This document shows, one piece after another, positions 15,342-31,812 of a DNA stretch of 32,000 nucleotides. The position numbers were made by a program, and so were the translations under genes. The DNA lies in contig NZ_MHZG01000015.1 of assembly GCF_001830325.1 (NCBI RefSeq), positions 32,570 through 64,569 of the forward strand, in the 5' to 3' direction. Source of the DNA: Polynucleobacter sp. GWA2_45_21. GTDB lineage: Bacteria; Pseudomonadota; Gammaproteobacteria; Burkholderiales; Burkholderiaceae. Within the stretch, counting starts at the first letter, position 1. Each line of letters opens with the position of its first letter. The notes beneath the pieces were generated by a model that worked only from the letters and a program-made list of their open reading frames with translations, did no database searches and was not told where the DNA came from.

Positions 15342-15344
15342 CAA

Positions 15345-15608: not shown

Positions 15609-16003
15609 TGAAATACATGCTCGATACTAATACGGTAAGTAGTTTCATAAAAGAAAATCCAAAAGTAAGCAAAAGAATCTCAAGTCTGCCTATGGATAGA
15701 TTATGCTTATCTGTGATTTCTGAAGGTGAGCTTTTATACGGTTTGGCTAAAAAACCAAATGCCCTTAATCTTCACAGAGCGGTTCGAGAGTTTTTAAAGC
15801 GAGTTGACGTGTTGAGCTGGGATAGCGATGTAGCTGAGTGTTACGGCTCTTTAAGGTCACAATTAGAGGCCTCAGGAAATTTACTTGGTCCGCTTGATAT
15901 GCAAATTGCCGCACATGCCTCTCAGGTTGGCGCTGTTCTAGTGACAAATGACCAAGCATTTAAACGGGTTCATAAATTAAAGGTAGAGGACTGGACGCTA
16001 TAG
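15608..16003 (+). CDS. vapC: type II toxin VapC (PIN-domain ribonuclease)
   Basis: 131 aa. MLDTNT (Asp), SEGEL (Glu), LDMQIAAHA (Asp), VTND (Asp) make up the PIN acidic quartet. Confidence 0.85.
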   Translation: MKYMLDTNTVSSFIKENPKVSKRISSLPMDRLCLSVISEGELLYGLAKKPNALNLHRAVREFLKRVDVLSWDSDVAECYGSLRSQLEASGNLLGPLDMQIAAHASQVGAVLVTNDQAFKRVHKLKVEDWTL

Positions 16004-16021
16004 TCTTACTAGAACGCTTCA

Positions 16022-16411
16022 ATGAACAACATTAAAAATTTAGATTCCGCTTTGTCTCATCTGGCTGATGTAGTAGACCAGCGACGTGATGCATTTAAGG
16101 CCGGCCAAGCTGATCCCAAGACCTCTTATACAGCCCTACTCTTTTCCAAGGGAGATGACGGTATTTTGAAAAAAATTGGTGAAGAGGCTACCGAAGCAGT
16201 CATGGCTGCCAAGGATGCTCGAAATGCCAATTTAGCCCCTGAACAACAAAAACTCTTGATAGGCGAGATGGCGGACCTCTGGTTTCATTGCCTAATTGCC
16301 CTTTCTCAGTTTGGTTTGAGGCCAGAAGACGTGATTACTGAGTTAGAGCGCCGTCTCGGCACCTCAGGCATCGAAGAAAAAGCCGCCAGAAAAGCTGCAA
16401 GCAAGGAGTAA
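16022..16411 (+). CDS. hisE: phosphoribosyl-ATP pyrophosphatase
   Basis: 129 aa MazG-like HisE ([17 protein letters not shown]). Confidence 0.9.
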
Positions 16412-16414
16412 TTG

Positions 16415-16771
16415 ATGTCCCACGACCCAAATTGCCTATTTTGTAAGATTTCCAAGGGTGAAATCCCATCCCAAAAAGTGTACGAGGATGAGGAGATTTA
16501 TGCCTTTAAAGATATTAATCCTGCCGCCCCTGTCCATTTTTTGATGATTCCTAAAAAACATATCCCTATGCTGGAATCTGCAGAAGTGGCTGATGCGCCA
16601 TTGCTAGGTAGAATGATGGAGTTAGCACCGCGTCTCGCCAAGGAGCAGGGTTGCCGTCCTGGAAAAGATGGCGGCTTTAGATTGGTAGTGAATAATGGTG
16701 CAGATGGTGGGCAAGAGGTTTATCACTTGCATTTGCATGTGATGGGCGGTCCGCGCCCCTGGAAAAAATAG
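16415..16771 (+). CDS. HIT-family (HinT-like) nucleotide hydrolase
   Basis: About 118 aa. CLFCKI..., histidine triad [12 protein letters not shown] 16415 is preferred over TTG 16412. Confidence 0.85.
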
Positions 16772-17555: not shown

Positions 17556-18353
17556 ATGACGCAAAATAATTCAACAGAAGATTCCGGACTACAAGAATCC
17601 TTCTTGTCACATTTATTTGAGCTGCGTGATCGCATCATCAAGTCAGCGATTGCAATTATTGTAGTTTTCGTTTCCTTAGTTTATTGGGCGCCAGATATTT
17701 TTCATTTGTTTGCCCAGCCACTGCTTCAAGCATTGCCCGCAGGCGGCAAGATGATTGTGACTGATGTGACTGGTTCATTCTTTGTGCCGATGAAGGTCAC
17801 GATGTTGGTTGCTTTCTTGATTGCTCTGCCAGTAGTGATGTATCAGTTATGGGCGTTTATTGCCCCCGGCCTTTATCAGCATGAGCGTAAGTTGATAGTG
17901 CCTTTGGTTATCAGTAGCTATAGCCTCTTTATTTTCGGGATGGCTTTTGCTTACTTCTTAGTTTTCCCAACGGTATTTCAATTCATGGCTAGCTATAACG
18001 CCCCCTTAGGCGCTGAAATGTCGACTGATATTGATAAATATCTTGGCTTTGCAATGACAACCTTTTTGGCCTTTGGCATTACCTTTGAGGTTCCGGTTGT
18101 TGTGGTGGTGCTGGTTCGCATGGGCATGGTCCAACTAGCCAAACTTAAGGAGATTCGTCCTTATGTGATTGTTGGCGCTTTTGTGATTGCAGCAATTGTG
18201 ACGCCACCAGATGTGTTGTCTCAATTACTGCTAGCTGTACCTATGTGCTTGCTTTACGAACTCGGGCTTCTGATCGCTCGTTTCTATATCCCTAAGTCGA
18301 CAGACGACGAGGCTGGCACAACAACAAACCCAGATACTCAAGCAACCGTTTGA
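17556..18353 (+). CDS. tatC: twin-arginine translocase subunit TatC
   Basis: 265 aa polytopic protein. SHLFELRDR... TatC signature, follows tatAB. Confidence 0.95.
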   Translation: MTQNNSTEDSGLQESFLSHLFELRDRIIKSAIAIIVVFVSLVYWAPDIFHLFAQPLLQALPAGGKMIVTDVTGSFFVPMKVTMLVAFLIALPVVMYQLWAFIAPGLYQHERKLIVPLVISSYSLFIFGMAFAYFLVFPTVFQFMASYNAPLGAEMSTDIDKYLGFAMTTFLAFGITFEVPVVVVVLVRMGMVQLAKLKEIRPYVIVGAFVIAAIVTPPDVLSQLLLAVPMCLLYELGLLIARFYIPKSTDDEAGTTTNPDTQATV

Positions 18354-19816
18354 TCTTGTGAGAAGGTAGTAGTCAGCCACTCAGTTACTCGATCAAATCG
18401 ATAGCGTCTTTGTCTTAAATTACCTTCTAAGTCTGATTCGCTTCCAGCAAATACTTTTCCCGCTGCAAGCAAAGAGCGACGCTGCTGTGTGGTATCAATC
18501 TGAATTAATCTAGGCAGTATCTTTGGTAGCTCGTGGCGAATATCGACAACGACACAATGTTCGTGCTGTAACTGCCCAACCTCGCACAGTAATAGCTCAG
18601 CCTTGCTCAAATTAAATTGATTGGCGATGATGAGTCGGTGACATAGCAAGATCCACTCTTCATCTAATTTGTGTTCGGCGTGATGGTTTAATGCCTTTTC
18701 AGCATAAGTAGCTAATTCAAACCAATCATTGTTCTTTGGGCTGGAGACATTCTCCAGAATTTTCCCAAGTAATTCTTTTGCTTCGGGAACGCCTTGTTGG
18801 TGTGCTTGCCAAATCCAATAAGAAGCTTGCAGGCCACGAACCTTCTCTTCAACTTTTTCGCGTTTGCGCCAGAGGTTGGCGCCTCTTTTGAATTGAGCCA
18901 CTGGATGACCTAAATCTGCCGCACGATCAAGACAGCGATCACTCTCAGCCGCGTTGTAACCAGAGAATTGCGGACGGCGGTAAATTTCACCTAAAGCAAA
19001 CCAAGCATCACGATCACCATCCTTTGCTGCAAGCTCTAACCAGTAGGCTGCTTTTTTGAGGGAGGCATTGGATTTGCTACCACTCACCCCAGTAGCATCT
19101 TTTGAAGCAGAATCAACTTCATTGAATTGCGCTAGGCGTAATCCCAGTGTCAGTTTGGCAATCGTTAGCCCAAGTTCTGCTGCTTGTATCAGTGCTGCCT
19201 CATTTTTATCAGAGAGCCAGGCATTCCAAAGTGAGGAGAGCGCTTCATCTTTTGGCTGTAGCTTAATGAGTAGTTCTTTTGCATTGTTAGTAAATGGTGT
19301 TTCAGAATCTGCCAGACCCAATAAAAACTCTTTTGCTTTCTTTTGCAGAGACAGAAAGTCATCACCACCTTTGCCTTGCTTCAAAAGCCAGTTAGAGAGC
19401 TCAGCCTGTAAGTCTTTTTTAGCGGGATTCAGTAAAAGTTCTGCAAGCTGCCATTGCGCTACGTAACTTGCATCAATATTGGCCTTAGCTAACTTCCAGA
19501 ATGATTCCCACCCAAAAGTAAATGCCGGTGAATTAAATGTTCCCTCCAGTGGAACGGTCGAGATTTGCTCCAGCATCTCCAAAATCTCTGGGGAAGAGCT
19601 ATCTAAGACAGCAATTTCAGCATCACTTGAGCTCAACTGGCTAACTAATTGATTTTGAATGGAAAAATAAGATTTTTCTAACCAAATCAGGGCATTAGCA
19701 GGCTGGATTGGGGTTTTAAAAGCACCCGTAAGATAAGCGGAGGCTAAATTTTGTTGCGCAGAAACGTCACCAATACGGGCTAATTGGAGGATTTTTAGGA
19801 ATTCACGGCTTGCCAT
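18338..19816 (-). CDS. Sel1/TPR-like repeat protein
   Basis: 492 aa. Sel1-like repeats, e.g. AAYWLELAAKDGDRDAWFALGEIY and LDRAADLGHPVAQFKRGANLW. Its 3' end overlaps the tatC 3' end by 16 nt. Confidence 0.6.
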   Translation of the reverse strand: MASREFLKILQLARIGDVSAQQNLASAYLTGAFKTPIQPANALIWLEKSYFSIQNQLVSQLSSSDAEIAVLDSSSPEILEMLEQISTVPLEGTFNSPAFTFGWESFWKLAKANIDASYVAQWQLAELLLNPAKKDLQAELSNWLLKQGKGGDDFLSLQKKAKEFLLGLADSETPFTNNAKELLIKLQPKDEALSSLWNAWLSDKNEAALIQAAELGLTIAKLTLGLRLAQFNEVDSASKDATGVSGSKSNASLKKAAYWLELAAKDGDRDAWFALGEIYRRPQFSGYNAAESDRCLDRAADLGHPVAQFKRGANLWRKREKVEEKVRGLQASYWIWQAHQQGVPEAKELLGKILENVSSPKNNDWFELATYAEKALNHHAEHKLDEEWILLCHRLIIANQFNLSKAELLLCEVGQLQHEHCVVVDIRHELPKILPRLIQIDTTQQRRSLLAAGKVFAGSESDLEGNLRQRRYRFDRVTEWLTTTFSQDQTVA

Positions 19817-20006
19817 ATGACAATTTTGGCATTCCAGGCCTTAAAAAGACAGAAATCAAAGCCCTTGTTGTCCTGATACAACGAAGAAAGCCAAAAAACT
19901 GCCTTTTGACAAGCAAAAAGAGCTCCTAAATACCCTGACCCTCAGTCTGGCAGGGCAAAACAAGCAAAATTCGTAGGTCCCAGTTTTATTTGGGCATTAC
20001 TTTCAA

Positions 20007-20110
20007 TTTATGGAGATTTAAAGAATGAAAAAATCGCTATTAGCAGTTGCAGCAATGACAGCATTTGCTGGCGCAGCTCAAGCTCAGTCATCAGTGACTG
20101 TTTACGGTAT
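20007..20110 (+). repeat. direct repeat copy 1 (porin RBS + first 86 nt of CDS), identical to 26864-26967
   Basis: Manual alignment at offset 6857 gives no mismatch over 104 nt. The first difference is at 20111 (t) versus 26968 (c). Weaker similarity extends about 10 nt further upstream with a 2-nt indel. Confidence 0.9.
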
Positions 20111-21224
20111 TTTGGATGTTGGTTATGTTGGCGGTAACGCTAAGTCAACCGCAGCTGGAAAAAACTCCGCTGAAACTGTCAGCCTCGTTGGACAGTCAGC
20201 TGAAACAAGTTCCCGTTTAGGATTTAAGGGCACTGAAGATTTGGGCGGCGGCACTTCTGCTTTCTTTACATTTGAAACAGGTTTGAGCCCTAACTCAAGC
20301 ACAGTTTCTACTTGGAATAACCGTCAAGCATTTGTTGGCTTGAAGAAGAATGGCCTTGGCGCTGCAATGATTGGTACACAGTACACCCCAATCCACACAG
20401 CAATTGGTAAAACATCTGCCGGTCAGTACAACAACATCGTTGGCGATGTAATTTACCCACAGTCTTCTGGTTTGAATGCTGCAAACGCATCCAATGCAAA
20501 CCAAAACAACATTGGTTACACCATTCGCTCTAACAACATGTTAAAGCTCGAGTCAGACACATTTGCTGGCTTTAAAGGCACAGCATTTTATGCAGCAAAC
20601 AATAAAAATGAAAACCAAGGCGCTAACACAACTACTTACGCCCTTGATCCAGCATCGTCTACACCGGCTGTTAAAGCTACAAATGTAGGCGTTGGTGGTA
20701 CAACCAACGTTACAGGTTATGGATTGGGCGTTGATTACACTTGGAAGAAATTATTGGTATCGGCTAATTACCAATCCTTCAAAAACGAAACTGACTCCAG
20801 CCTAACAGCAACTGTTGCTGGCGTGAACTCAACTGATAACCAAATGTACGCTGCTGCTGCATATGATTTCGGCATCTTGAAGGCTTTTGCACAGTACAGT
20901 AACCGTAAGATTACTTCCAACCTGAACAGCAACCAGTATTTCAAGCGCTCTGCACAGCAGATCGGTGTTCGTAGCTTCATTACACCAAAAATTGAAGGTT
21001 GGGCTTCTGTAGGTAACGGCCGCAATCAAGCGTTTGGTCTTGGCGAGCCAACAGCAAACTTTACTGGTTACCAGTTAGGTTCGAACTACTGGCTCAGCAA
21101 GCGTACAAACTTGTATGCGATTTTTGGTGCAAGCCAAACTTCAAACGTTAGCTCGATCGCAAGCTCTGCTAACAATAGCTACAATGCAAACAACTATGCT
21201 CTTGGCGTACGTCACACTTTCTAA
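20025..21224 (+). CDS. general porin, Gram-negative OmpC/Omp32-type (allele 1)
   Basis: 399 aa. Signal peptide MKKSLLAVAAMTAFAGAAQA, mature N-terminus QSSVTVYGILDVGY, alternating beta-strand pattern, C-terminal YALGVRHTF. ggag RBS. Confidence 0.9.
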   Translation: MKKSLLAVAAMTAFAGAAQAQSSVTVYGILDVGYVGGNAKSTAAGKNSAETVSLVGQSAETSSRLGFKGTEDLGGGTSAFFTFETGLSPNSSTVSTWNNRQAFVGLKKNGLGAAMIGTQYTPIHTAIGKTSAGQYNNIVGDVIYPQSSGLNAANASNANQNNIGYTIRSNNMLKLESDTFAGFKGTAFYAANNKNENQGANTTTYALDPASSTPAVKATNVGVGGTTNVTGYGLGVDYTWKKLLVSANYQSFKNETDSSLTATVAGVNSTDNQMYAAAAYDFGILKAFAQYSNRKITSNLNSNQYFKRSAQQIGVRSFITPKIEGWASVGNGRNQAFGLGEPTANFTGYQLGSNYWLSKRTNLYAIFGASQTSNVSSIASSANNSYNANNYALGVRHTF

Positions 21225-21303
21225 TTGGATGCTAGCTTAGGCTAGTTGATAATTAGTTTGGCATCACTTAACCCACTGTGGCAACACAGTGGGTTTTTTC
21301 TTT
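21195..21303 (+). repeat. imperfect direct repeat copy 1 (porin 3' end + terminator), similar to 28078-28190
   Basis: gctcttggcgtacgtcacactttctaatt...gctagcttaggctagtt...attagtttggcatca...aacccactgtgg(c/t)aacacagtgggtttttt is shared with scattered mismatches and small indels. Confidence 0.8.
21270..21300 (+). terminator. rho-independent terminator of porin 1
   Basis: 11-bp stem aacccactgtg / cacagtgggtt, loop gcaa, followed by a T-tract. Confidence 0.8.
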
Positions 21304-21313
21304 ACAGAACTCA

Positions 21314-21475
21314 CTACACGCTAGCAACTTTACTTCGCTGTTGATTAAGTTTGACCTGTTGTTGACGGATACGTTCTTGCTTTACACGCTGTTGTGCTTG
21401 CCGAACCTGTGCTTGCATAGTTTTGATACGCTGCTGCTCTGGTGTTGGCGGTTTAATCACTTCTGAGATGCGCAT
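21314..21475 (-). CDS. small Gln/Arg-rich hypothetical protein (island trio protein C)
   Basis: 53 aa from ATG 21475 (MRISEVIKPPTPEQQR...). GGAG lies 7 nt upstream, and the gene starts 1 nt after the protein B stop. The same position is occupied by an ATG at 31996 in island 2. Confidence 0.5.
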   Translation of the reverse strand: MRISEVIKPPTPEQQRIKTMQAQVRQAQQRVKQERIRQQQVKLNQQRSKVASV

Positions 21476-21476
21476 G

Positions 21477-21620
21477 TTAGATCTCCGCAGGAATGCTGAT
21501 GACATTACCTGCACCAAATAGTGCTTGCAGTATTTTCGTGGCGAACGTGGTGTTTTCTGCATACACCACAGTGGTTACTACAACACCGCTTGCTCTCACA
21601 GTTGCACGAAATTGTTTCAT
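21477..21620 (-). CDS. 47-aa conserved hypothetical protein (island trio protein B)
   Basis: MKQFRATVRASGVVVTTVVYAENTTFATKILQALFGAGNVISIPAEI has the same length as 31850-31993 (MKQFRATVRASGIVVTTIVYADNVNFAIKLLQAQFGASNVISIPAQV). By eye, many nucleotide differences are synonymous or conservative, as expected for real coding sequence. Confidence 0.6.
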   Translation of the reverse strand: MKQFRATVRASGVVVTTVVYAENTTFATKILQALFGAGNVISIPAEI

Positions 21621-21759
21621 AACAATATTTATTGTGTTGTTGTTTGCTGATGTGCACACAACGCGAAAGCATCTTGGCATAGTGTCTCGTCTTTAAAACC
21701 GGGGTTCTTGTCAGCGCACTAGATAATTGCAAAACCCAGTGAATTCAGCAAGATTTCAG

Positions 21760-22206
21760 TCATTTCGCAAACCCCGCACGCAGTTTTGTTGCAGCAGCAT
21801 CAATTTGTGTATCTAGTTCACCAGCAAGTACAGCAGTTTTAATTGCATCTAGTGTGGCAGTTAAATCTTTAGCTTGTGCCACTTCCACTGCAAATTTGCC
21901 ACGTGCAAGTTCCAATACGCGACTACCGTAACGCACGCTAATTGCCAACTTTCCAGTCTGTGTTGTAAACCACCACGGTTTGACGGTGACATGTTGTTCG
22001 ATTTGTTTGCGTAAGCCAGTTTCCGTGTCTGTGTACGACTTGAACTTGGCAACACGGAACTGCATACCTTGTTCCTCCGCTTTAGCCAATTCAATCTGTT
22101 GCCAAACCCGTTTTGCCAGTTTGTTTCTGCGTTGTACCACTTGCGGAATTTGTTGCGGTTTGCGTGCATCTGTTAGTTTTAATGCTGAAAGTGCGGATGT
22201 TGTCAT
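21760..22206 (-). CDS. 148-aa conserved hypothetical protein (island trio protein A)
   Basis: AAGGAG RBS. Colinear homolog of 31365-31805, with roughly half the residues identical by eye (LKLT..KP..IP..V.RRNKL...W.QI.LAK, ETGLR.Q, WWF, AGELD.QI). Confidence 0.7.
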   Translation of the reverse strand: MTTSALSALKLTDARKPQQIPQVVQRRNKLAKRVWQQIELAKAEEQGMQFRVAKFKSYTDTETGLRKQIEQHVTVKPWWFTTQTGKLAISVRYGSRVLELARGKFAVEVAQAKDLTATLDAIKTAVLAGELDTQIDAAATKLRAGFAK

Positions 22207-22282
22207 GATGTCAGCTCCTTTAGTTATGTTGACAGCACAACTGTATTTTCGGATTAGTGCATTGCGCGACCGAAATCTGCTT

Positions 22283-22306
22283 GATCACATCAATTTGCCC
22301 AAAATC
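22283..22306 (-). promoter_or_regulatory. conserved block upstream of protein A gene (contains ATTTG-GG-CAAAT inverted repeat)
   Basis: The reverse complement reads gattttgggcaaattgatgtgatcaa. It matches 31274-31299 (aatttgggcaaattgaggtcgaccaa) in an otherwise diverged intergenic region. Confidence 0.4.
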
Positions 22307-22357
22307 TTCTAAAACCACCTAATAACGCATCACATTTAATGAGCTAATGTTTGGTCA

Positions 22358-22735
22358 GTGCTAAATACTTGCATGGATGATTTAACTTACACGCTAAACG
22401 CACGTACCCATAAAGATACCGCTAAAACGGATATATGGATTGCACAGCAACACATCACTGCCAAGCAATTTATGGATGCGGATGTGCAAACCTGCTTGTT
22501 GCAAGCGCAGAAAATGGCACGTATTACCATTCAGCACCACGCACGCTATCTATGTACGTACAACACCACGGTATTAAATGGGTTTTTACAGAAAATGGCA
22601 TTTGGCAAGTCGCGCAGCAAACTGCGTGAGCAACATGCCCGTGCTGTATTTCGGATATGCGCACAGGTTAACCGTAAGTTATATCAAACAGCAGATAGAC
22701 GCTGCACAAAGAAAGGTCAAAAAACCAGTTTGTAA
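22358..22735 (+). CDS. hypothetical protein (weak call)
   Basis: 125-aa ORF with a GTG start (ATG 5 codons in), no clear RBS and no recognisable motif. Divergent from protein A1. Confidence 0.3.
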   Translation: MLNTCMDDLTYTLNARTHKDTAKTDIWIAQQHITAKQFMDADVQTCLLQAQKMARITIQHHARYLCTYNTTVLNGFLQKMAFGKSRSKLREQHARAVFRICAQVNRKLYQTADRRCTKKGQKTSL

Positions 22736-23551
22736 TATAACGGCTAATGAGACTGGGCTTGTTGCATCAACACAGTAGATTGCGGTGCAACGCATAAGCA
22801 GATAATGCCATGGGTTAAGCAGTTCCCGTTCATACGCAAACCAATGCGTGTAATGGGTTGGGAGTTTCAAACATCTTTCTCCCGTAAAAACCAATCTACT
22901 GTGTGTGCAGGGACTTTTTACCGTCAAGCACCATGCAACGACTAATAGCGACAGAGTATTTCTCCGCTATAGCCGTTGTATGACTAGAACATTCTCCGTC
23001 AAGCTAACTGCACCAAAAGCAACTGCGTTGCTTTCGGCTTTCTTTTATCATGTGATAAATTATTCACAGAAAACGGTGTGAGCGAAAACGAAGTTTTTGC
23101 GAAACACAAGCAAACGCAGTTTGCTTTCACACTACCAGTTAGATGTAATTCACCAATACTACAGGTCTACTACACCTGCGAAAACTACAGTACAAAAATA
23201 CAGGGCTACGAACTGATTTTGGGCAGCACTACGCAGCAACACCTCAAAACACCTGCACACACGCAGATCGGGGCGGTAAACAACGCAATACCAGCAAGAA
23301 TACGTGCACACGCTACAGCGTTATTTTGATGTGTTGCATGTGCTGTCGTCTAAATGCCACGAATAAAACACCTGTGCATGTAAATTTGCGCTAAATACAT
23401 GACCAAATAGAATGCACAAACTCTTTGGTCAGTGGCATAAGTAACTGTTTTATATAGAAACGCATGACATACAACCCATATACATGTTCAGGTTGCTCTG
23501 CTAGCGCATAAGAATACATACTAAAAACGCACACATTATTTGGAGAAACCC

Positions 23552-24151
23552 ATGGCACAAGCAAAATCACTGACACAGCACGATATTGATGCAGTTTTAA
23601 ATTACATCACTACACGTACATACGCAACCCGCAACCGATTGATGTTTTTGTTTACGGTCTTAGCGGGGCTTCGCGTGTCTGAAGTCGCGCAATTAACGGT
23701 AGGGGATGTGCGCAATACCGATGGCAGTATTAAAACGCAGGTGTTCTTGTCCGCGCAGCGTGTCAAGCATGGACATGCACGCACGGTGTTTGTCAGTACG
23801 CAGTTGCAGCGTGAACTTAGTCTGTACTTAACAGCACGCATCTATGCGCAGGGTGATATTGGTGATGACATGCCACTATTTCATACGCTACGTGGTATTC
23901 GTAATGCATTTACTGCTTCCACACTGACCCAGCACTTTCATTACTTGTACCGTCGTGCACGGGTATTTGGTGCTAGCAGCCATTCGGGTAGACGCACATT
24001 CATTACTAACTTGAGTAATTCAGGCATCAGTGTGTTTGTACTTGCCAGTTTGGCAGGACACAAGAACATTGCGACTACTAACCGTTATGTTACGGTAAAT
24101 GACGAGCAAAAAAGACGTGCCGTAGACTGCTTTAGTTTGCAGGTAGCTTAA
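23552..24151 (+). CDS. small tyrosine recombinase, catalytic domain only (island 1)
   Basis: 199 aa from ATG 23552 (ggag RBS). Full R-K-H-R-H-Y set: GLRVSE, VKHGHARTV, SHSGRR, GHKNI, NRY. Homolog of 29712-30281. Confidence 0.85.
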   Translation: MAQAKSLTQHDIDAVLNYITTRTYATRNRLMFLFTVLAGLRVSEVAQLTVGDVRNTDGSIKTQVFLSAQRVKHGHARTVFVSTQLQRELSLYLTARIYAQGDIGDDMPLFHTLRGIRNAFTASTLTQHFHYLYRRARVFGASSHSGRRTFITNLSNSGISVFVLASLAGHKNIATTNRYVTVNDEQKRRAVDCFSLQVA

Positions 24152-24982
24152 TTAACTACGTAACTTGTGTTGTGCAAGTCGTTCTTTGAGCATTTCACCA
24201 GAACGCTCCAAACCATGATCATTAGCATCTACAATGTGTTCTTGACTGTACAGTAACTCCAGCGCAACTTGCACCAATGCTTCGCGTTGTCGCCAATATT
24301 GCCGCAGTCGCTGACCAACTGCAGGTGCAACAGACATCTGTGCGAATTTACTTTTGCTCCCACGAATGCGCGGAACACCTGTAATACAAGCATCAGGCTC
24401 AAAACCAAGTTCACAATTGACGTCACGATCTAACCAACGTTGTATTTCATGTGATTGTTGTACATCAGGCATGGGATTACGCAGTGGGTTGGTGTCAATT
24501 GCATTGGTAAGTAACATAACTGCTTCTTCGTAACAAGACTCTGCTTTTGTTTCCATGCGCTGAAATGCTGTTTTGCCATTAGCGTCCCGTTTAATAGAAC
24601 GACGAAACAAGTTGGCAAGACGAGTATATTTGTCACCGTCTTTTACATACTGCATGTAATCATACAAAACACTGGGCATGCTTTCTGTTGCGGTCCAATG
24701 ACTTTCTACATGTGAAATATCCCAGTCGTAGCTTTGCACGTATTCCAAGTAACGCTCTTTTCCCAATGCCGCAAGCATTTTTTGTTTTGGCACAGCACGC
24801 TGTGCAATCACAGATACCAGTGCAGCTTTGATTAAGCGTAATGATGCGTACTCCGTATCATTGATTAGGCGAAATGGAAGATCACGCAACGCATTGTAAG
24901 TAAGTTGATGTATGTACTGGCTATCATCAATGCTGCTACTGCATTTGATGGCGCGTAAGTCAAACAACACAGCGTACTGCAA
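24152..24982 (-). CDS. hypothetical protein, 276 aa
   Basis: Long ORF with a TTG start, 19 nt downstream of the H-NS-like gene in the same orientation as integrase 1. No motif recognised. Confidence 0.5.
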   Translation of the reverse strand: MQYAVLFDLRAIKCSSSIDDSQYIHQLTYNALRDLPFRLINDTEYASLRLIKAALVSVIAQRAVPKQKMLAALGKERYLEYVQSYDWDISHVESHWTATESMPSVLYDYMQYVKDGDKYTRLANLFRRSIKRDANGKTAFQRMETKAESCYEEAVMLLTNAIDTNPLRNPMPDVQQSHEIQRWLDRDVNCELGFEPDACITGVPRIRGSKSKFAQMSVAPAVGQRLRQYWRQREALVQVALELLYSQEHIVDANDHGLERSGEMLKERLAQHKLRS

Positions 24983-25001
24983 TGTACGCTGTGCATGCTG
25001 T

Positions 25002-25259
25002 TTAAACTTTTCTGCGTCGACTAGTGCTTTTGCGGGGTGCAGAACGTGATGATTTGGCTTTCATGACGCTGCGCAAGTCAGTTGCACTAAAACTGTGCGT
25101 TGTAATCAATCTTTTCACGGTTGCCAAATCTTCTTCACGTGTTTGCGTCAACAATGCTTCAATCTTTGCATTGAGTTCGGCTTGTGCCTTTTGTGCTGCT
25201 GCTAATTGGTCGCTAGCAGATTGCGAAGACGAAGTCATTTCAGTCATATCATTTCCCAT
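25002..25259 (-). CDS. small H-NS N-terminal-domain-like protein with basic tail (no C-terminal DNA-binding domain)
   Basis: 85 aa. The coiled-coil-like AAQKAQAELNAKIEALLTQTREEDLATVKRLITTHSFSATDL resembles oligomerisation regions of betaproteobacterial H-NS-like proteins. It ends in KSSRSAPRKSTSRRRKV. Confidence 0.4.
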   Translation of the reverse strand: MGNDMTEMTSSSQSASDQLAAAQKAQAELNAKIEALLTQTREEDLATVKRLITTHSFSATDLRSVMKAKSSRSAPRKSTSRRRKV

Positions 25260-25343
25260 TTAGTTACTGATAACAGAATTATTATCAATACTAGAAAATA
25301 TAAATTAAATCTTAACAAGTGTAATAGGTACATACGCTATGAT

Positions 25344-26645
25344 TTATCTTCTGCTGTGCAACATACCCACATTCATTTCTGGTGTAAGTTGACTGGCATA
25401 AAATCGTTCGATCATTTCCACGCTTGTACGTGCATTACGCGCCAGTGTCAGTAAATCAATTCCACGTCCGTATAACAACCTATATGTAATTGCTGTGTGT
25501 CGTAACGAATACAATGTGCGTCGCTGTCCAAGTGCGCCAAATCGTAATCCTGTTGCAAGCAGTATCTTTACAAAATACTTGTCAATCAATTGCATTGCAG
25601 CAGCACGGTCTTTAATCTGCGGTAAAAACAAATAGTCATCTGCAGTTGCCAAACCTTGCTGGTCGTAATAACTACGCAGATGTTCATATATGCGTACAGC
25701 AGGTTGCAATGTAATAACTGGTGCAGAGTGACGCTTGGTTTCAGGAATGGTTAAACGCAAGTAGATGTGACCATTACGTATCACTTCAATATGCTTGTGT
25801 TGCATTAGTTTCATATCAACTGGTCGTACAAAGCTGTTGACCATAAAACCAATTAACCAAGTCATTTCACGTGGAATGTTAGCGTCTGGTGCAAACAGAT
25901 TATTGTGTTTGGTACGATGAGTAACTTTAATTGGTGCACACACTTGATTTGCTAATACTTTACTGGCACGAAGTAATGCACGGTATTCAACAACACTAAA
26001 TCCACCACGTGGCGTACTAGATGATTTAAGTTTGGGGAAGGTTGGGACTTTTTCAATCCAGCCGTGTTTAAATGCGCACTCTAATACTTTGTGTAGTGCA
26101 TTCAAGTACTGCGTAATTGTCATTGACTTGTACTGCTTGTCACTTAGAAAGTACAAGAAGCGTTCTATGTCTGTGTGTTTAATGTCAGTTACTTGCACAG
26201 AGCCAAAGTACGGCAATACCCATTTGCGTATGCGTGACACCAGCATTACATAGGTGCCATTTGTAATCTCGTCACGTTTCACGCGTGCCGTTTCATTTGC
26301 AAGCATGATGTTGGTAACGGTGTTGACTGATAAATCTTGTGTATTTGCAACAGCACCTTGTGCAATTACGCCTGTGTCTATTAAATGCTGTTCATAAAAC
26401 AATTTAGCCAGTTGCAAAGCGTGTCGCTTGCTGGTTGTGCGCAAACTACGTATCACTGTCTTGTTATCAAAATAACAGCGCACTTGCCAGTAGCTACTTG
26501 CATTGGTCAAAAAGATACGTAATTTGTTTGGATAGCTGGGTACATATGTAATGGTGTGCAAGATTGGAAGCGTGCGACAACGTTTTGCGTAAAAGAATTC
26601 GTCGTTTGCCGATTTGGATTGCATATCGCAAGCGTACTGTCGCAC
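25344..26645 (-). CDS. tyrosine integrase (island 1)
   Basis: 433 aa (GTG 26645; alternative ATG 26624). Its C-terminal two thirds are colinear with 28266-29369 (GWIE..P.FPK, FVRPVD, ETKRH, TLYSLRHTAIT, LLTLARNARTSVEMIE.FY). Confidence 0.85.
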   Translation of the reverse strand: MRQYACDMQSKSANDEFFYAKRCRTLPILHTITYVPSYPNKLRIFLTNASSYWQVRCYFDNKTVIRSLRTTSKRHALQLAKLFYEQHLIDTGVIAQGAVANTQDLSVNTVTNIMLANETARVKRDEITNGTYVMLVSRIRKWVLPYFGSVQVTDIKHTDIERFLYFLSDKQYKSMTITQYLNALHKVLECAFKHGWIEKVPTFPKLKSSSTPRGGFSVVEYRALLRASKVLANQVCAPIKVTHRTKHNNLFAPDANIPREMTWLIGFMVNSFVRPVDMKLMQHKHIEVIRNGHIYLRLTIPETKRHSAPVITLQPAVRIYEHLRSYYDQQGLATADDYLFLPQIKDRAAAMQLIDKYFVKILLATGLRFGALGQRRTLYSLRHTAITYRLLYGRGIDLLTLARNARTSVEMIERFYASQLTPEMNVGMLHSRR

Positions 26646-26763
26646 ACCAAGTTATGCGACCAGTATATTTTTTGCAGATTTGCTTTTATCAAAACTCTGC
26701 CATTCCCAATCCATTTACCACTGTTAGAAAAAGTAAGCACGTTTTAGATAAACGTTTGCACTT

Positions 26764-26789
26764 TGTCGCACAGTCCCCAGTGTGCGACA
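26764..26789 (+). repeat. palindrome TGTCGCACA-N8-TGTGCGACA at the integrase-proximal end of island 1
   Basis: 9-bp arms at 26764-26772 and 26781-26789. Further half-sites at 26572-26579 (gtgcgaca) and 26638-26646 (tgtcgcaca, overlapping the int start). Confidence 0.6.
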
Positions 26790-26863
26790 GCGACACTCAC
26801 TTGTATAAGCAAGTAATGCGGTTTTAATGGAGCAAGTTAGTGATGCGCACATTCTTGTCAATT

Positions 26864-26967
26864 TTTATGGAGATTTAAAGAATGAAAAAATCGCTATTAG
26901 CAGTTGCAGCAATGACAGCATTTGCTGGCGCAGCTCAAGCTCAGTCATCAGTGACTGTTTACGGTAT
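26864..26967 (+). repeat. direct repeat copy 2, identical to 20007-20110
   Basis: See copy 1. Confidence 0.9.
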
Positions 26968-28108
26968 CTTGGACGTTGGTTACATTGGCACAAACTTGCG
27001 TGTTCCACAAACAGCTGCCCCTTTGACGGCAGTCCCTGCGTACAAGCTTACTCAAAATGCTTTCGGTCAATCTGCTGAGACAACATCACGTCTTGGTTTT
27101 AAGGGTACAGAAGACTTGGGCGGCGGTATGAATGCCTTCTTCACAGCTGAATTTCAATTGTTCCCACAAGATTGGAGTCTTTCAGGTTCTTCAGCATCTG
27201 CTTTGGGAACAGGTACATCTGCTAACCCAGCAGGCGGCCTACAAAACCGTCAAAGTTTCGTTGGTTTGAGCAAAAAAGGTCTCGGTCAAGCAGCGATTGG
27301 TACACAGTACACTCCAATCCACGTTGCTGTTGGCAAGACTGACCCAGGTCAACAAAACAATATGATCGGTAGCGTTATCTACCCAGCAAACGGCTCTGGC
27401 TTCACAACAGGTGCTTACACAGTTCGTTCAAACAATGCCTTGACTGCTGCAACCGATACATTCTCTGGCTTTAAATTGTCAGCAATGTATGCAATGAACA
27501 ATCAAGATCGCACACAGTTGGCTAATGGTGGAGCTACTGCTGCTGCAACAAACGGCGGTAATACCAATTCAAATGGCTGGGGTCTTGGTGCTGATTACAC
27601 TTGGAAAAAATTGTTTGTAACTGCAAACTATCAGTCATTCAAAAACGAAACTAATAGCACTACAGCTGCATTGCCAGCAGCGACAACTGGTAACGTAAAC
27701 GGTCAAAATATTACCGATAACCAAATGTATGTTGGTACAACTTATGACTTTGGTATTTTGAAGGCCTATGCTGGTTGGACAAGTCGTAAAGCAACATCTG
27801 GCTTAGACTCTAATAACTATGCCAAACGCTCTGGTCAGCAGATTGGTGTACGTAGCTTCATTACACCTAAGATTGAGGGTTGGGCAAACGTTGGTAATGG
27901 CCGTTTCACTTCATATGGTACCGGCTCCCCAACAGCAAACTTCACTGCCTATCAGTTGGGTGCAAATTACTGGTTGAGCAAGCGTACTAATTTGTACACA
28001 ATCTTCGGATCAACACAAACTAGTTCAAGCGCTGCAACAACAGCACTCCCAGGTGGTACTGCTGGTGGTGGTAATCAATACGCTCTTGGCGTACGTCACA
28101 CTTTCTAA
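26882..28108 (+). CDS. general porin, Gram-negative OmpC/Omp32-type (allele 2)
   Basis: 408 aa. Same signal peptide and first beta-strand as allele 1, conserved strand blocks (SRLGFKGTEDLGGG, IGTQYTPIH, DYTWKK, QQIGVRSFITPKIEGWA, NYWLSKRTNLY, YALGVRHTF), and divergent segments between them. Confidence 0.9.
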   Translation: MKKSLLAVAAMTAFAGAAQAQSSVTVYGILDVGYIGTNLRVPQTAAPLTAVPAYKLTQNAFGQSAETTSRLGFKGTEDLGGGMNAFFTAEFQLFPQDWSLSGSSASALGTGTSANPAGGLQNRQSFVGLSKKGLGQAAIGTQYTPIHVAVGKTDPGQQNNMIGSVIYPANGSGFTTGAYTVRSNNALTAATDTFSGFKLSAMYAMNNQDRTQLANGGATAAATNGGNTNSNGWGLGADYTWKKLFVTANYQSFKNETNSTTAALPAATTGNVNGQNITDNQMYVGTTYDFGILKAYAGWTSRKATSGLDSNNYAKRSGQQIGVRSFITPKIEGWANVGNGRFTSYGTGSPTANFTAYQLGANYWLSKRTNLYTIFGSTQTSSSAATTALPGGTAGGGNQYALGVRHTF

Positions 28109-28190
28109 TTTCTTGCTAGCTTAGGCTAGTTACGAATTAGTTTGGCATCAAATTAACCCACTGTGGTAACACAGTGGGTTTTTTTCTTTT
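28078..28190 (+). repeat. imperfect direct repeat copy 2 (porin 3' end + terminator)
   Basis: See 21195-21303. Confidence 0.8.
28155..28186 (+). terminator. rho-independent terminator of porin 2
   Basis: Stem aacccactgtg / cacagtgggtt, loop gtaa, T-tract. Confidence 0.8.
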
Positions 28191-28265
28191 CTAAAGTTTG
28201 ATTGTTCTCTTACAACTTTTTTGCTATACACATTAATTCTTTTAATTCAGATTTAAGGAAATTTA

Positions 28266-29369
28266 ATGTCCTCTAGTTTTTACGCGCGTGAAGCTGCAAA
28301 CGATAGTTTCATAGTCAATCTTGAAAATCAGTCTGAACTTAAATTGGAGGTTAGTATCAAACAAGGGGAAATAAATTTTTCTCAGGTAATAGCTATTGCA
28401 ACTGAAAAGGAGGAACAAAAGCAGAGATGCGGAGAAATAACTAAGCAAACTTTGAGTATGTTTCATAGCAGGGTCAATTCAAATATCTCAGAATACTTTG
28501 GACTACTAAAGACATCAGACATTACATCTAAGGTGATACTTGGATTTATTGAATTTTTAAGTGATAAATCAATTAAGGCAGTAACAATTAATCAATATTT
28601 GGGACTTTTAAAGAGGCTGTTAACCATTGCGGTATTAGAGGGCTGGATAGAGGGTTTGCCTGTATTTCCGAAAGTTAGAAGCAAGAGCATCCCAAGAGCT
28701 AGCCTTTCTATTGATGAGTACTTAGAAGTCTTACGTTGCGCTAAAAATATGTCTCGTCCCAAGATATCGACACAAGATTCTCATAGGAATATTGTCAATG
28801 GCTTCTACGTAAAGGATGCTCCAATTCCCAAAGAAATGGTCTGGTTAATTGGCTTCATGACTAATACATTCCTCCGTCCTGTAGATATGAAATTACTACA
28901 GCATAAGCATATAAAGATTGTAGAAGGCAAAAATCGATATCTTAAAATTAGTCTTCCTGAAACAAAGCGTCATACTGGTCAGGTAATATCTCTTAGGGCT
29001 GCCGTAAGAATATACAGGGAGTTGAGAGAGAATGACTATAAGCATGGGTTTGGTAATACTAATGATTACGTCTTTCTTCCCCAAATTAAAAATCGTGAAG
29101 TTGCAATCCAAGCAATTTCATTCCTATTTAGAAGAATCTTACTTAAGGCTAAGTTGGAATCTAGTAGCGATGGTCAAAAAAGAACGCTTTACTCTCTTAG
29201 GCATACTGCAATTACATTCAGACTAATATATGGGCAAGGAATTGATCTATTAACCCTAGCTCGAAATGCTAGAACTTCTGTAGAGATGATTGAGAAGTTT
29301 TATTCATCTAACCTCAAGGCAGAAATGAATGTTGATATGCTACAAAGCAAGAGAACAAAGCTTGGCTAA
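28266..29369 (+). CDS. tyrosine integrase (island 2)
   Basis: 367 aa with an aagga RBS. Catalytic region homologous to integrase 1, N-terminal ~100 aa unrelated by eye. Confidence 0.85.
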   Translation: MSSSFYAREAANDSFIVNLENQSELKLEVSIKQGEINFSQVIAIATEKEEQKQRCGEITKQTLSMFHSRVNSNISEYFGLLKTSDITSKVILGFIEFLSDKSIKAVTINQYLGLLKRLLTIAVLEGWIEGLPVFPKVRSKSIPRASLSIDEYLEVLRCAKNMSRPKISTQDSHRNIVNGFYVKDAPIPKEMVWLIGFMTNTFLRPVDMKLLQHKHIKIVEGKNRYLKISLPETKRHTGQVISLRAAVRIYRELRENDYKHGFGNTNDYVFLPQIKNREVAIQAISFLFRRILLKAKLESSSDGQKRTLYSLRHTAITFRLIYGQGIDLLTLARNARTSVEMIEKFYSSNLKAEMNVDMLQSKRTKLG

Positions 29370-29380
29370 ATTTTTTTCAC

Positions 29381-29399
29381 TGTCGTGTTCAACACGACA
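29381..29399 (+). repeat. palindrome TGTCGTGTT-C-AACACGACA
   Basis: 9-bp arms, 12 nt after the int2 stop, with no 3' T-tract. Same design as 30350-30368 and 31813-31837. Confidence 0.7.
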
Positions 29400-29711
29400 C
29401 CACGGCCCCTAAAAGTTCACCTCAAAAACCGTCTATGCGCTGTATGTTTGGCGCGCCAAATAGCTGTGCATCAGAGAGCCCCTGTTTTAAGCTTGTAGCT
29501 TGGATTTGAGGTGTTTGGGCAATTCCGTCGTCTTTATCCCACGAATGACATAAATACATTTAGCCCCACCAAAGATTATTGCTATTTTCTTTGGCGGAGC
29601 TAAATGCTAAGTCATTGATTCTTGGAAAGATTATTGATCACCCATTTTGGTCGTCCTTTGGAGCAAAAGAATACAAACTGCATACACAGTTTTATTTATC
29701 TAAAGGAAAAA

Positions 29712-30281
29712 ATGGCTCAAGCAAAAACACTCACCACAAATGAATTAGAACAAGTCTTACGCTACATCAGCAGCACAACTTATGCAGAACGCAATCGCGT
29801 AATGTTGCTCATGGGATATTGGGCGGGACTTCGCGTTAAAGAAATTGCCCAATTAAAAATGGGGGATGTATTAAATGACGATGGCACGATTAAAAGCGAA
29901 ATTCGTTTAAGTGCACAGCAAACTAAAGGGAATGACGGCAGAACGGTGTTCTTGCCAGTAAAGTTAAAAGAAGAATTGGCTGTGTATCTCAAAACTCGCC
30001 ATATCACCATGCCTGATATTCCCTTGTTCCACACATCCAAGCGTTTGGGCTGGACGCCTAATACCTTATGCCAGCACTTCTTTTGGCTTTATAAGCGAGC
30101 GGGTATTGCGGGTGCTAGTAGCCATAGTGGTCGTAGGCAATTTATTACGACCTTGGCAAATAAGGGCATCTCTGTGCGTATTTTGGCTAGCTTGGCGGGG
30201 CATAAGAGTATTGCGGTAACGCAAAAATATATCGATGTGAACGATGATATGAAAAGAGCGGCCGTGGAGTTGGTGGCGTAG
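29712..30281 (+). CDS. small tyrosine recombinase, catalytic domain only (island 2)
   Basis: 189 aa from ATG 29712 (aaagga RBS). GLRVKE, TKGNDGRTV, SHSGRR, GHKSI, QKY. The ORF-track TTG 29622 extension is not supported. Confidence 0.85.
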   Translation: MAQAKTLTTNELEQVLRYISSTTYAERNRVMLLMGYWAGLRVKEIAQLKMGDVLNDDGTIKSEIRLSAQQTKGNDGRTVFLPVKLKEELAVYLKTRHITMPDIPLFHTSKRLGWTPNTLCQHFFWLYKRAGIAGASSHSGRRQFITTLANKGISVRILASLAGHKSIAVTQKYIDVNDDMKRAAVELVA

Positions 30282-30349
30282 TGCGTTCTAAATGGAACAC
30301 ATTAACCCAGCGTCCAATAACGAGACGCTTACCAAATCAGGTATGGTGT

Positions 30350-30368
30350 TTGTCGGGTTACCCGACAA
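30350..30368 (+). repeat. palindrome TTGTCGGGT-T-ACCCGACAA
   Basis: 9-bp arms, about 70 nt after the small recombinase 2 stop. Shares the TGTCG...CGACA design. Confidence 0.6.
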
Positions 30369-30460
30369 GCTAGGTGTCTGGGGGCAAATTGCCAAGTGTC
30401 CTGTTTCGCGACGGTGCCTATTTAATGAGCACCGCTACTGGAAGTAACACGCATTAATGG

Positions 30461-30489
30461 CAAAAGAGTTGTTCCATTTGGAACAACTC
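30461..30489 (-). terminator. candidate rho-independent terminator of the 149-aa orphan gene
   Basis: 10-bp stem gagttgttcc / ggaacaactc, 4-nt loop. On the minus strand it is followed by cttttgcc. Confidence 0.55.
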
Positions 30490-30508
30490 ATCTTATCCCC
30501 TACGGGTT

Positions 30509-30958
30509 CTAATGCAAATCCACATTAGTAGCAATAAACACAGGCTTATTAGTGCCCGTTGCTTTGCAGTTGTGCACATTTAAAGTCCACTCATCTTGGG
30601 TTTGATTTGTGGGATCATCAATCGCAATATGGAGCTCCTTGCTATTGGGTGCATAAATGCAGTATCCGTTCGCCGGGGTTTTGGTTTTGCTCAGTGGCTC
30701 ATAGTGCAATAACCACGATAGCAAAATACCTGCTTGGGCTTGAATGCCTGCCCCCACTAACTTTGTGACGGTGTCCATTTGGACATCGGATTTGGCTAAG
30801 TGTTCCCAGTGATCAAAGGTGTAAAAATCCACTAAGTATTTTTGACTTGGACTGGCCAATTCCACGGAGCCATTAAAAACGGCTCGTCTAAATAATCCCT
30901 GACCAAAGCTCGTATTGAACTTTTCATTGGCAAATCCTCGAATGGCTATTTCTCTCAT
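30509..30958 (-). CDS. hypothetical protein, 149 aa
   Basis: ATG 30958 (MREIAIRGFANEKF...) is preceded by AAGGAG. The longer ORF-track start at 31039 has no RBS. No motif recognised. Confidence 0.55.
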   Translation of the reverse strand: MREIAIRGFANEKFNTSFGQGLFRRAVFNGSVELASPSQKYLVDFYTFDHWEHLAKSDVQMDTVTKLVGAGIQAQAGILLSWLLHYEPLSKTKTPANGYCIYAPNSKELHIAIDDPTNQTQDEWTLNVHNCKATGTNKPVFIATNVDLH

Positions 30959-30989
30959 ATCGTTCTCCTTTATATAAATTGATTGAGTT

Positions 30990-31125
30990 CTCACGCAGTT
31001 GCTAGTTAGTGGAGTTAGTTGCCAAAGAAGAGATCTCAAAAGATCAGTTGCTATGAGTGGGGTTGCTTTCCCAAAGGGAGAGTCACGCAGTAGCGTTGCT
31101 AGTCAGAGTAAGTCATTTGCTACTA
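30990..31125 (+). repeat. iteron-like cluster of GTTGCTA(GT)/TCACGCAGT motifs
   Basis: tcacgcagttgctagt (30991-31006), agttgcc (31017-31023), cagttgctatgagt (31045-31058), ggttgcttt (31061-31069), tcacgcagtagcgttgctagt (31083-31103), catttgctact (31114-31124). Confidence 0.55.
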
Positions 31126-31273
31126 CCAGTAACGACTCAACTCAAACACTCGAACTCCACTTACTCATGCAACTGTTTTTCTTTAAGCGACCTTACTTTT
31201 GTAACCAAGCAACTCGCAAAAATATTTATGCCTGCTAAACAAAAACAAACAAAAATAATGGCGATATTTGGTG

Positions 31274-31299
31274 AATTTGGGCAAATTGAGGTCGACCAA
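31274..31299 (+). promoter_or_regulatory. conserved block upstream of protein A gene (ATTTG-GG-CAAAT)
   Basis: Counterpart of 22283-22306. Confidence 0.4.
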
Positions 31300-31805: not shown

Positions 31806-31812
31806 GGCCCTG

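Follow-up and report, generated by a model that had tools for sequence, protein, structure and literature searches.

What keeps the first hundred or so bases of two otherwise divergent porin genes identical across an island that carries its own integrase? The question is raised by a 32,000-nucleotide (nt) stretch of Polynucleobacter sp. GWA2_45_21 (RefSeq assembly GCF_001830325.1, contig NZ_MHZG01000015.1, positions 32,570–64,569 of the forward strand; hereafter the window), in which two Porin_4 genes, porin 1 and porin 2, lie on the same strand on either side of a segment, island 1, that encodes the tyrosine recombinase integrase 1 (int1). An earlier note on this DNA proposed that porin 1 and island 1 form an element that integrates into the 5' end of a resident porin gene. 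Comparison with related genomes leads us to regard island 1 as probably a member of a group of small integrase-bearing elements that recombine at the extreme 5' end of a major Porin_4 gene, and the earlier proposal is backed by the junction of core and island DNA at the repeat, by the recurrence of the arrangement, and by porin copies in relatives that lack a start.

A repeated porin start around porin 1 and island 1

The relatives referred to most often below are L003 (the isolate Polynucleobacter sp. UK-Gri1-W3), L077 (P. aenigmaticus), and L089–L098, a sister population represented by about ten independent metagenome assemblies. The features of the window that bear on the question are the following, with lengths of proteins in amino acids (aa).

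19817–20006, + strand: host upstream region (promoter region and 5' untranslated region, UTR) of the porin expression site, 90–97% identical to L077 and L003A
20007–20110, + strand: left 104-nt block (ribosome binding site (RBS), ATG, signal peptide and first beta-strand)
20011–20041, + strand: left copy of the candidate attachment (att) core, TGGAGATTTAAAGAATGAAAAAATCGCTATT
20025–21224, + strand: porin 1, 399 aa, Porin_4 (Pfam PF13609, E 6e-35), at the expression site
21270–21303, + strand: porin 1 terminator, hairpin and T-run; likeness to the porin 2 flank stops at about 21303
21304–26863, − strand: island 1, about 5.6 kb
25344–26645, − strand: int1, a divergent tyrosine recombinase of 426–433 aa, reading into the island
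26646–26863: island-side arm between int1 and the right block, 85–95% identical to the L003 island arm and unrelated to the host upstream region
26864–26967, + strand: right 104-nt block, with the candidate core at 26868–26898
26882–28108, + strand: porin 2, 408 aa, Porin_4 (Pfam E 2e-40), integrase-proximal, open reading frame (ORF) intact with RBS and ATG
28155–28184, + strand: porin 2 terminator, 97% identical to the porin 1 terminator

Direct alignment and a repeat search both show that 20007–20110 and 26864–26967 agree at all 104 bases, from 18 nt 5' of each ATG (20025 and 26882) to a point inside codon 29, as the earlier note had read; over a slightly longer segment (20007–20132 and 26864–26989) identity is 97% across 126 nt. 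To the 5' side of the block the two flanks are unrelated, save for weak similarity from about −40 to −18. To its 3' side the identity of porin 1 and porin 2 drops to 15–75% in 60-nt windows and the proteins are 56–58% identical; overall the two genes are about 60–75% identical outside the block, diverged as the earlier note had described. By our own arithmetic, a perfect run of 104 nt has a probability of about 1e-13 at a per-site identity of about 75%. The 31-nt core within the block occurs in the window only as the two block copies (zero are expected from shuffled sequences); these are direct repeats, and an inverted copy is absent from the window. Between the repeats, porin 1 body, terminator, island 1 and inward-reading int1 follow one another in the order first reported, and int1 (start at GTG 26645, or at ATG 26624 in the gene call) begins 219–240 nt from the right block. 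Direct repeats likewise mark both ends of the elements at L003, L007, L010 and L089.

The 3' ends of the two genes are also alike, with 90% identity between 21195–21266 and 28079–28150 and 97% between the terminators (21268–21299 and 28153–28184), which gives the porin cassettes conserved ends, 5' and 3' alike. Each terminator hairpin (21270–21295 and 28155–28180) is a perfect 11-bp palindrome, and the two differ at one loop base.

The junction and its recurrence in relatives

The DNA to the left of 20007 is core DNA, 90–97% identical to L077, which lacks island 1, and to L003. Left of 26864 lies island DNA, 85–95% identical to the spacer between integrase and porin in L003 and unrelated to the host upstream region. 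Since one flank is core DNA and the other is island DNA, position −18 is, on this comparison, a real core/island junction. The host upstream region is kept in L004, L042, L044, L061, L074 and L079. The host 5' UTR in front of the expressed porin contains a hairpin at 19979–19994 (CCCAGTTTTATTTGGG) that is present in all Polynucleobacter expression-site copies and is absent 5' of displaced porin copies; neither the 5' UTR nor the block matches a known RNA element in Rfam at gathering thresholds.

An island between two same-strand porins is found at L003, L004, L007, L010, L032, L068 and L082 (the last with tandem units), and in the L089–L098 population; layouts of this kind are widespread among Betaproteobacteria. 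Within each genome the exact run shared by porin copies starts just 5' of the RBS and varies in length:

Window: 104 nt
L003: 119 nt
L007: 68 nt
L004: 44–62 nt
L010: 1118 nt
L089: 33–34 nt (−18 to +15)
L028: about 24 nt

The long run in L010 is a direct repeat, 100% identical over its 1118 nt (8678–9795 and 15305–16422), that surrounds an int1-type island and extends from the RBS through most of the porin; it looks like the trace of a very recent event or of conversion.

Where integrases are 95–98% identical to int1, their contexts repeat the same architecture and show no alternative state. L077, the closest relative by the tatC–sel1 flank (79%), has the same flanks and a single porin with island 2 next to it and no island 1, and this arrangement is, to judge from the gene order, the state expected after excision. 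The search of related genomes for an empty site, which the earlier note had suggested, thus yielded a single-porin locus free of island 1 and no near-identical strain with the exact empty site. Likewise, L004 has an island-1-type element and its nearest flank relative, L079 (86%), does not. Orthologues of island 1 are present in L003 (81% nt identity), L089–L098 (about 79%) and L004; the islands of the window, L003 and L089 are 79–81% identical to one another and the flanks 75–76%. From these values long residence with occasional gain and loss of island-1-type elements is as likely as recent transfer, and island 1 itself seems to be a long resident of patchy distribution and not freshly arrived. 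An island beside another porin allele, which the earlier note had proposed to look for, occurs at L003, where the integrase is 96% identical and the integrase-proximal porin body unrelated.

Which porin came first can be asked of L077. Its porin is a mosaic with 53% and 55% protein identity to the two porins of the window; at the nt level it leans slightly towards porin 2, and these two have a 3' flank in common at 88–93% identity. This comparison is suggestive, not decisive, for porin 2 as the ancestral body.

Porin copies without starts and inverted porins

Homologues of int1 number more than 3,000 and constitute a large Burkholderiales family of tyrosine recombinases. A genome scan seeded with the integrase alignment alone gave 80 loci, mostly in Burkholderiales; a porin hidden Markov model (HMM) was built from these loci, and the surroundings of 86 integrase genes were examined. 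Within 3 kb of these genes there are 59 porins, and by clustering the geometry of porin and integrase tracks the integrase clade, the porin being divergent with its 5' end towards the integrase, co-directional with the integrase after its 3' end, or convergent:

Cluster 5 (int1-type, Polynucleobacter): porin divergent, upstream by 170–236 nt, 4 of 4 loci with enough flank
Cluster 4 (full-length integrases): porin divergent, upstream, 5 of 5
Cluster 2 (full-length integrases): porin divergent, upstream, 2 of 2
Cluster 11 (Comamonadaceae): porin divergent, 5' ends 135–320 nt from the integrase, 16 of 18
Cluster 1 (int2-type, N-terminally shorter): porin co-directional, just upstream, 8 of 8
Cluster 10 (Ramlibacter): porin convergent, 55–104 nt after the integrase, 9 of 11
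Cluster 8 (Limnohabitans and others): no adjacent porin, 0 of 14

By core position L005 and L089–L097 also match the geometry of cluster 5, and a divergent porin 5' end adjoins the integrase at at least 27 loci in several genera, with a clade-specific junction position. Cluster 8 shows ordinary integrase behaviour at another target: in L031 its island lies between the copies of a 121-nt direct repeat, unrelated to porin starts and some 170 nt away from the integrase. The start of this repeat (9711–9831 and 20794–20914) contains a tRNA-like 5' half, GGGGTGTAGCTTAGTCTGGTAAAGCGC, that is called by neither ARAGORN nor Rfam.

The Comamonadaceae loci of cluster 11 are the most informative. Here the integrase-proximal porin lacks the RBS, the ATG and the first 6–8 codons and has an in-frame stop a few codons upstream, and its body is uninterrupted (HMM positions 7–9 to 372, the last). 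The two copies become homologous at TTGCTCTGGCTGC, within the signal peptide. At L032 and L068, where the far end of the island is available, the far porin has a complete leader, and the pair is identical from exactly the TTGCTCTGGCTGC point. Had an element simply inserted into one of two tandem porins, an orphan 5' stub would be expected where the island ends on the far side, and none was seen at these loci; a full porin with its terminator abuts the far end, as it does at 21303/21304 in the window. Because a full porin and terminator, and not an orphan stub, stand at that end, the element must supply a porin body. That the integrase-proximal copy is the displaced one, a resident body moved behind the island as the earlier note had it, is supported by these start-less but intact copies, which match what the model predicts.

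In Ramlibacter-type loci the flanks are collinear, but the segment of about 1.5–2 kb that separates two divergent porins has one orientation in L018/L022 and the opposite one in L019/L029/L033. The leader (promoter, RBS, ATG and seven codons) is joined to the integrase-adjacent body in L018/L022 and to the other body in L019/L029/L033, and the unjoined body is start-less. The inverted core is about 11–20 nt long, and its variable positions agree within each genome (TGCTTTGGC, TGCCTTGGC and TGCCCTGGC), as would be expected for partner sites of a site-specific recombinase; efficient RecA exchange is unlikely here because the shared core is so short. The inverted segment (about 11300–15400, shifted by about −2000 in L033) contains COQ7-like and OsmC-like genes, the porin promoter and the leader, with the integrase just outside. 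Inverted porin pairs also occur in Polynucleobacter at L061, L074 and L079, where convergent porins surround an int2-type gene in both relative orientations (L061 versus L074/L079) with exact 5' runs of 76–95 nt.

The probable extent of the att core

The earlier note took the whole 104-nt block as the att site. The repeat does bracket the element, but a site of that length is unlikely, as the minimal exact run in sister loci is 24–34 nt, from the RBS to codon 5. The 31-mer TGGAGATTTAAAGAATGAAAAAATCGCTATT is found at porin starts only and is invariant in 17 Polynucleobacter porin copies with three different upstream flanks. Because the minimal runs are short and the 31-mer is invariant behind three types of flank, the att core is probably only about 31–34 nt long (about −18 to +15), from RBS to codon 5. 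With a core ending at codon 5 the signal peptide probably travels with the incoming body and is not kept by the host; of the earlier proposal that host promoter, RBS and signal peptide are all fused to the element's porin body, the promoter part holds and the signal-peptide part probably does not.

Metagenome contigs have the exact 104-nt block in front of four more porin bodies; identity stops between +100 and +125, and three of these four contigs run on into an island-1-type distal end. The six porin bodies that follow the exact block share 53–70% protein identity. Because the block is joined to four more bodies, what lies beyond the core in the 104-nt block would be the leader and first beta-strand that the porin alleles of this lineage have in common.

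Proposed mechanism

In its circular form the element would consist of the core, the leader and body of its own porin, the terminator, the cargo, the integrase gene and the island arm. Int would recombine the core of the element with the core of the chromosomal porin, which in Polynucleobacter would be the 31–34 nt that run from the RBS over the ATG to codon 5. Integration would place the incoming body, porin 1, under the control of the host promoter and 5' UTR (19817–20006), and the earlier body, porin 2, would land beside int behind island DNA, cut off from its native promoter. A crossover between the two cores, which are direct repeats, would remove porin 1 together with island 1 and bring porin 2 back to the expression site; with inverted cores, such as those of relatives, it would instead switch the body that is expressed. 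This scheme takes it that Int catalyses these events with a crossover point within the core, that the porin 1 body arrived with island 1 and porin 2 is the displaced older body, that porin 2 is poorly expressed or silent, and that the element still moves; we infer each of these from the arrangement of the locus and its relatives.

Several observations weigh against the reading of island 1 as an element that recombines at the porin start. A tyrosine recombinase alone does not make 104 nt identical, and a shared allele pool or gene conversion is needed in addition. Porin 2 has retained both RBS and ATG, and with transcription from the island arm it may well not be silent; a scan for a porin 2 promoter gave fewer matches than shuffled sequences and is uninformative. 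The porin 3' ends and terminators are 90–97% identical, with an exact run of 44 nt between the terminators of L089, and because of this likeness exchange at the 3' end is also possible. The similarity of island 1 and the L089 island continues for about 300–500 nt into the integrase-proximal porin, as would be expected if the two had long been inherited together vertically, or if the island carries that porin. Int1 is divergent and has no PF00589 match at E ≤ 0.01, and island 1 has no recognisable excisionase, replication or transfer genes in Pfam, PHROG and NCBIfam scans. Finally, an empty site (host upstream region, block and porin 2 body) was absent from a metagenome scan with the exact 104-nt block, and a circle junction (island arm, block and porin 1 body) was absent from the four metagenome contigs that match the block.

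Alternative explanations

The identity of the porin starts could arise without a dedicated recombinase if RecA-dependent recombination or gene conversion between old porin paralogues kept the 5' (and 3') ends identical, the islands merely sitting in a hot spot. We consider this unlikely, although several observations speak for it. The block is 100% identical within the window and within L003 and 68–80% identical between them, which is the pattern of concerted change within genomes and divergence between them, and porin paralogues of one genome are often more alike than alleles of different genomes. Identical runs are anywhere from 34 to 1118 nt long, homogenisation extends to the 3' ends and terminators of the porins, and exact 5' runs are found in inverted porin pairs as well (95 nt in L079, 76 in L061 and 136 in L027). 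Conversion leaves unexplained, however, why three integrase clades lie at fixed positions and distances from porin ends across families, why integrase-proximal copies are cut at one precise point of the signal peptide with their bodies intact, how inversion occurs at a co-varying core of 11–20 nt, and why a sharp core/island junction is kept in several genomes.

Somewhat less likely again is that the island carries porin 2 with a promoter of its own and integrated at the 3' end or terminator of porin 1, so that a porin was added and none replaced, and the 5' identity reflects an allele pool. The same island plus porin 2 is bracketed by the 3' 100 nt and terminator at 90–97% identity, the terminator being a perfect 11-bp palindrome with a difference in the loop only; the window and L089 are collinear from the island through the first 300–500 nt of the integrase-proximal porin; int2-type integrases always lie just after a porin terminator; and the RBS and ATG of porin 2 are kept. 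Yet in Comamonadaceae an element of this kind would bear a dead gene, the integrase-proximal porin there having neither RBS nor ATG, and in L003, whose integrase is 96% identical, the integrase-proximal body is unrelated and similarity stops at 26994. The Ramlibacter breakpoints are at the 5' core and not at the terminator, and the single porin of L077 is, if anything, nearer to porin 2, with which it shares the 3' flank and island 2. An assembly artefact, a false join of two strain alleles at the 104-nt block that they have in common, might be suspected of a locus that stems from a metagenome-assembled genome (MAG; GCA_003505315.1) and a block that several alleles share in nature, but it is excluded for practical purposes because the isolate genome L003 and about ten independent metagenome assemblies (L089–L098) show the same architecture, with island DNA and not allele sequence separating the copies.

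With recombination at the porin 5' end thus the reading that we favour for island 1, a broader proposal can be made: that dedicated Burkholderiales tyrosine recombinases, which would act on the first few dozen bases of the major porin gene, form together with stored promoter-less or start-less bodies a porin expression-site and cassette system that changes the main porin of the cell, with integration and excision at direct sites and inversion at inverted ones. We put this forward tentatively, as a possibility slightly less likely than not.

Islands 1 and 2 and their integrases

Island 1 and the segment that follows porin 2, island 2, are mirror images with a shared set of genes: a large divergent tyrosine recombinase, a recombinase of about 200 aa, a DUF6641 gene and small ORFs. 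Apart from int1 their genes are as follows.

21314–21475 and 21477–21680, − strand: small ORFs of island 1
21760–22206, − strand: DUF6641 gene of island 1
22373–22735, + strand: 120-aa ORF
23552–24151, + strand: small tyrosine recombinase of island 1
24152–24970, − strand: 272-aa ORF
25002–25247, − strand: 81-aa ORF
28185–32000, + strand: island 2, which extends about 400 nt past the window (to L001 15426), up to a tRNA-Thr gene
28266–29369, + strand: int2, starting 82 nt after the porin 2 terminator
29712–30281: small recombinase of island 2
30509–30958, − strand: 149-aa ORF
31365–31805: DUF6641 gene of island 2

Int1 and int2 share 46–49% identity, but int2 is shorter (367 versus 433 aa) by about 65 N-terminal residues and aligns from about residue 94–108 of int1. 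The SAM-like N-terminal core-binding domain of int1 matches PF13102 (1e-06), PF14659 and PF02899, and that of int2 PF13102 (7e-08). Neither protein matches PF00589 at E ≤ 0.01, a domain that some of their homologues carry, and both match the PHROG integrase family phrog_1 (E 1e-23 for int1 and 2e-21 for int2). The candidate catalytic residues R274, K304, R382 and Y416 of int1 are invariant in 13 homologues, and the two catalytic His positions are apparently substituted, to judge from the sequence; int1 fits no curated NCBIfam family. Its island-side arm contains an 8-bp inverted repeat, GTCGCACA/TGTGCGAC, at about 26767–26790. The island 2 orthologue in L077 is 83–88% identical, and the similarity reaches about 380 nt into the porin 3' end.

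The small recombinases (23552–24151 and 29712–30281) are about 200 aa long with a catalytic domain only, about the size of the FimB and FimE invertases, and there is a weak match to NCBIfam PRK09870 (E 2e-9). Their orientation relative to int is not the same in the two islands. A search within the islands for invertible segments on which they might act gave only hairpin-like repeats around a module of island 2, at 29381–29410 and 31805–31834, which bracket its recombinase and DUF6641 genes.

Other origins for the islands found no support. There are no PADLOC matches to indicate defence cargo; PHROG matches, which would bear on a prophage or satellite origin, are limited to the integrases and three to four families of unknown function; and 2.9 million IMG/VR contigs contain next to nothing of the integrase family, two weak partial matches being all that they gave. 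The tRNA-Thr gene was considered as an attachment site, and it lies at the far end of island 2, with a tRNA-derived repeat at no island boundary.

The wider locus

The gene order is histidine (his) operon, tatABC, a Sel1-repeat gene (− strand), host upstream region, porin 1, island 1, porin 2 and island 2, followed beyond the window by tRNA-Thr, sspB, sspA, petCBA and mscL (contig DNYG01000013.1 of the MAG GCA_003505315.1). The window has no compositional anomaly and no tRNA genes. Within the his operon, between the PRA-CH (hisI) and PRA-PH (hisE) genes, lie genes for a MazE-like antitoxin (15345–15608) and a PIN-domain toxin (15608–16003).

Two observations concern the mobility of larger pieces. 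The metagenome contig L084, aligned with 18099–22063 of the window, is about 70–78% identical in the Sel1 gene, 88–100% in the host upstream region and block, and 100% in part of DUF6641, and because this identity is mosaic it indicates that pieces of the porin locus may be exchanged between species. The block from tRNA-Thr through sspB, sspA and petCBA to mscL (L001 15427–20032) follows the porin locus in the window and L077 and has the opposite orientation in L003, L004, L028, L061, L074 and L079; it is missing at this position in L089, where a glycosyltransferase gene follows directly. A block that is flipped or missing in relatives suggests larger rearrangements with end points at the porin locus.

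Relation to described systems

Full-text searches of the literature turned up no description of porin-targeting integrases, in keeping with the earlier remark that no integrase family was known to use a porin 5' end, and a recombinase family dedicated to porin exchange is apparently undescribed. The closest described analogue is the family of dusA-associated integrase (DAI) islands, which target the 5' end of dusA and are highly variable, the integrase being their sole constant (Farrugia et al. 2015, PMC4482086). They supply a short replacement 5' end and promoter, so that dusA keeps working and is transcribed from the island after insertion; porins are unmentioned (PMC4482086). To go by the descriptions, both families have integrases defined by the 5' end of one protein-coding gene, and the gene end is rebuilt from the island. 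Unlike DAI islands, whose target is a housekeeping enzyme, the porin islands would act on a hypervariable surface protein and supply nearly all of the gene, which alters the product and leaves the old body in place as a second gene copy.

Integration into protein genes has other precedents, in that e14 and phage 21 integrate into icd and SXT/R391 elements into prfC, where the substitute segment gives a functional chimeric gene. In those cases a short, nearly synonymous terminal segment is exchanged, whereas about 95% of the porin gene would be replaced, by an allele that is 40–60% diverged. Relative to described islands the new points would be the target class, a porin 5' end, and the outcome, replacement of the gene body.

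Site-specific inversion systems for surface proteins have one expression site, with the promoter and a conserved 5' coding end, that is joined to silent bodies at a short 5' site with a recombinase nearby; they include the Mycoplasma pulmonis vsa/HvsR locus and the R64 shufflon. Another such system varies the surface protein Omp1 of Dichelobacter nodosus (Moses et al. 1995, PMID 7476204, cited in PMC5903667). The Ramlibacter-type loci resemble these switches. The window differs from them in that its sites are direct and would lead to excision and integration of a cargo island, the recombinase is of the large integrase type, and no switching has been observed. The inverted 5' sites typical of inversion switches are absent from the window and present at L018, L019, L022, L029 and L033 and at L061, L074 and L079.

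Integrons offer a further likeness, with a fixed promoter and recombination site and promoter-less cassettes that are stacked with the newest nearest to the promoter, as in the tandem units of L082. Each porin unit, unlike an integron cassette, brings its own integrase and cargo, and the cassette is always the same kind of gene. No attC-like repeats and no IntI-type integrase are present in the window, and the integron-integrase models TIGR02249 and NF011946 match the small recombinase only, with scores of 30 and 16 bits where the cut-offs are 265 and 435. In the orphan toxin arrays of CdiA and Rhs a new module joins a conserved part and the old one is displaced downstream, start-less and intact; there the exchange is at the 3' end and is thought to occur by homologous recombination, whereas porin exchange is at the 5' end and beside a dedicated recombinase.

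Significance

Porins are the most abundant outer-membrane proteins, common phage receptors and targets of predators, and receptor diversity in freshwater plankton such as Polynucleobacter and the relatives of Limnohabitans is central to the question of how phages and hosts coexist. If the reading proposed here is right, porin-start recombinases would be a concrete generator of that diversity, with six bodies on one identical 5' block in this lineage, and free-living freshwater and soil bacteria would have programmed surface variation whose spread is the work of the islands. The 5' end of a surface-protein gene would join tRNA genes, dusA, icd and prfC as a class of integrase target, and the integration of islands would be linked mechanistically to the inversion switches of pathogens. 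The proposed reading would also account for a hypervariable locus at which MAG assemblies recurrently break, and a short natural att site paired with its integrase may serve as a genetic tool for bacteria that are hard to manipulate.

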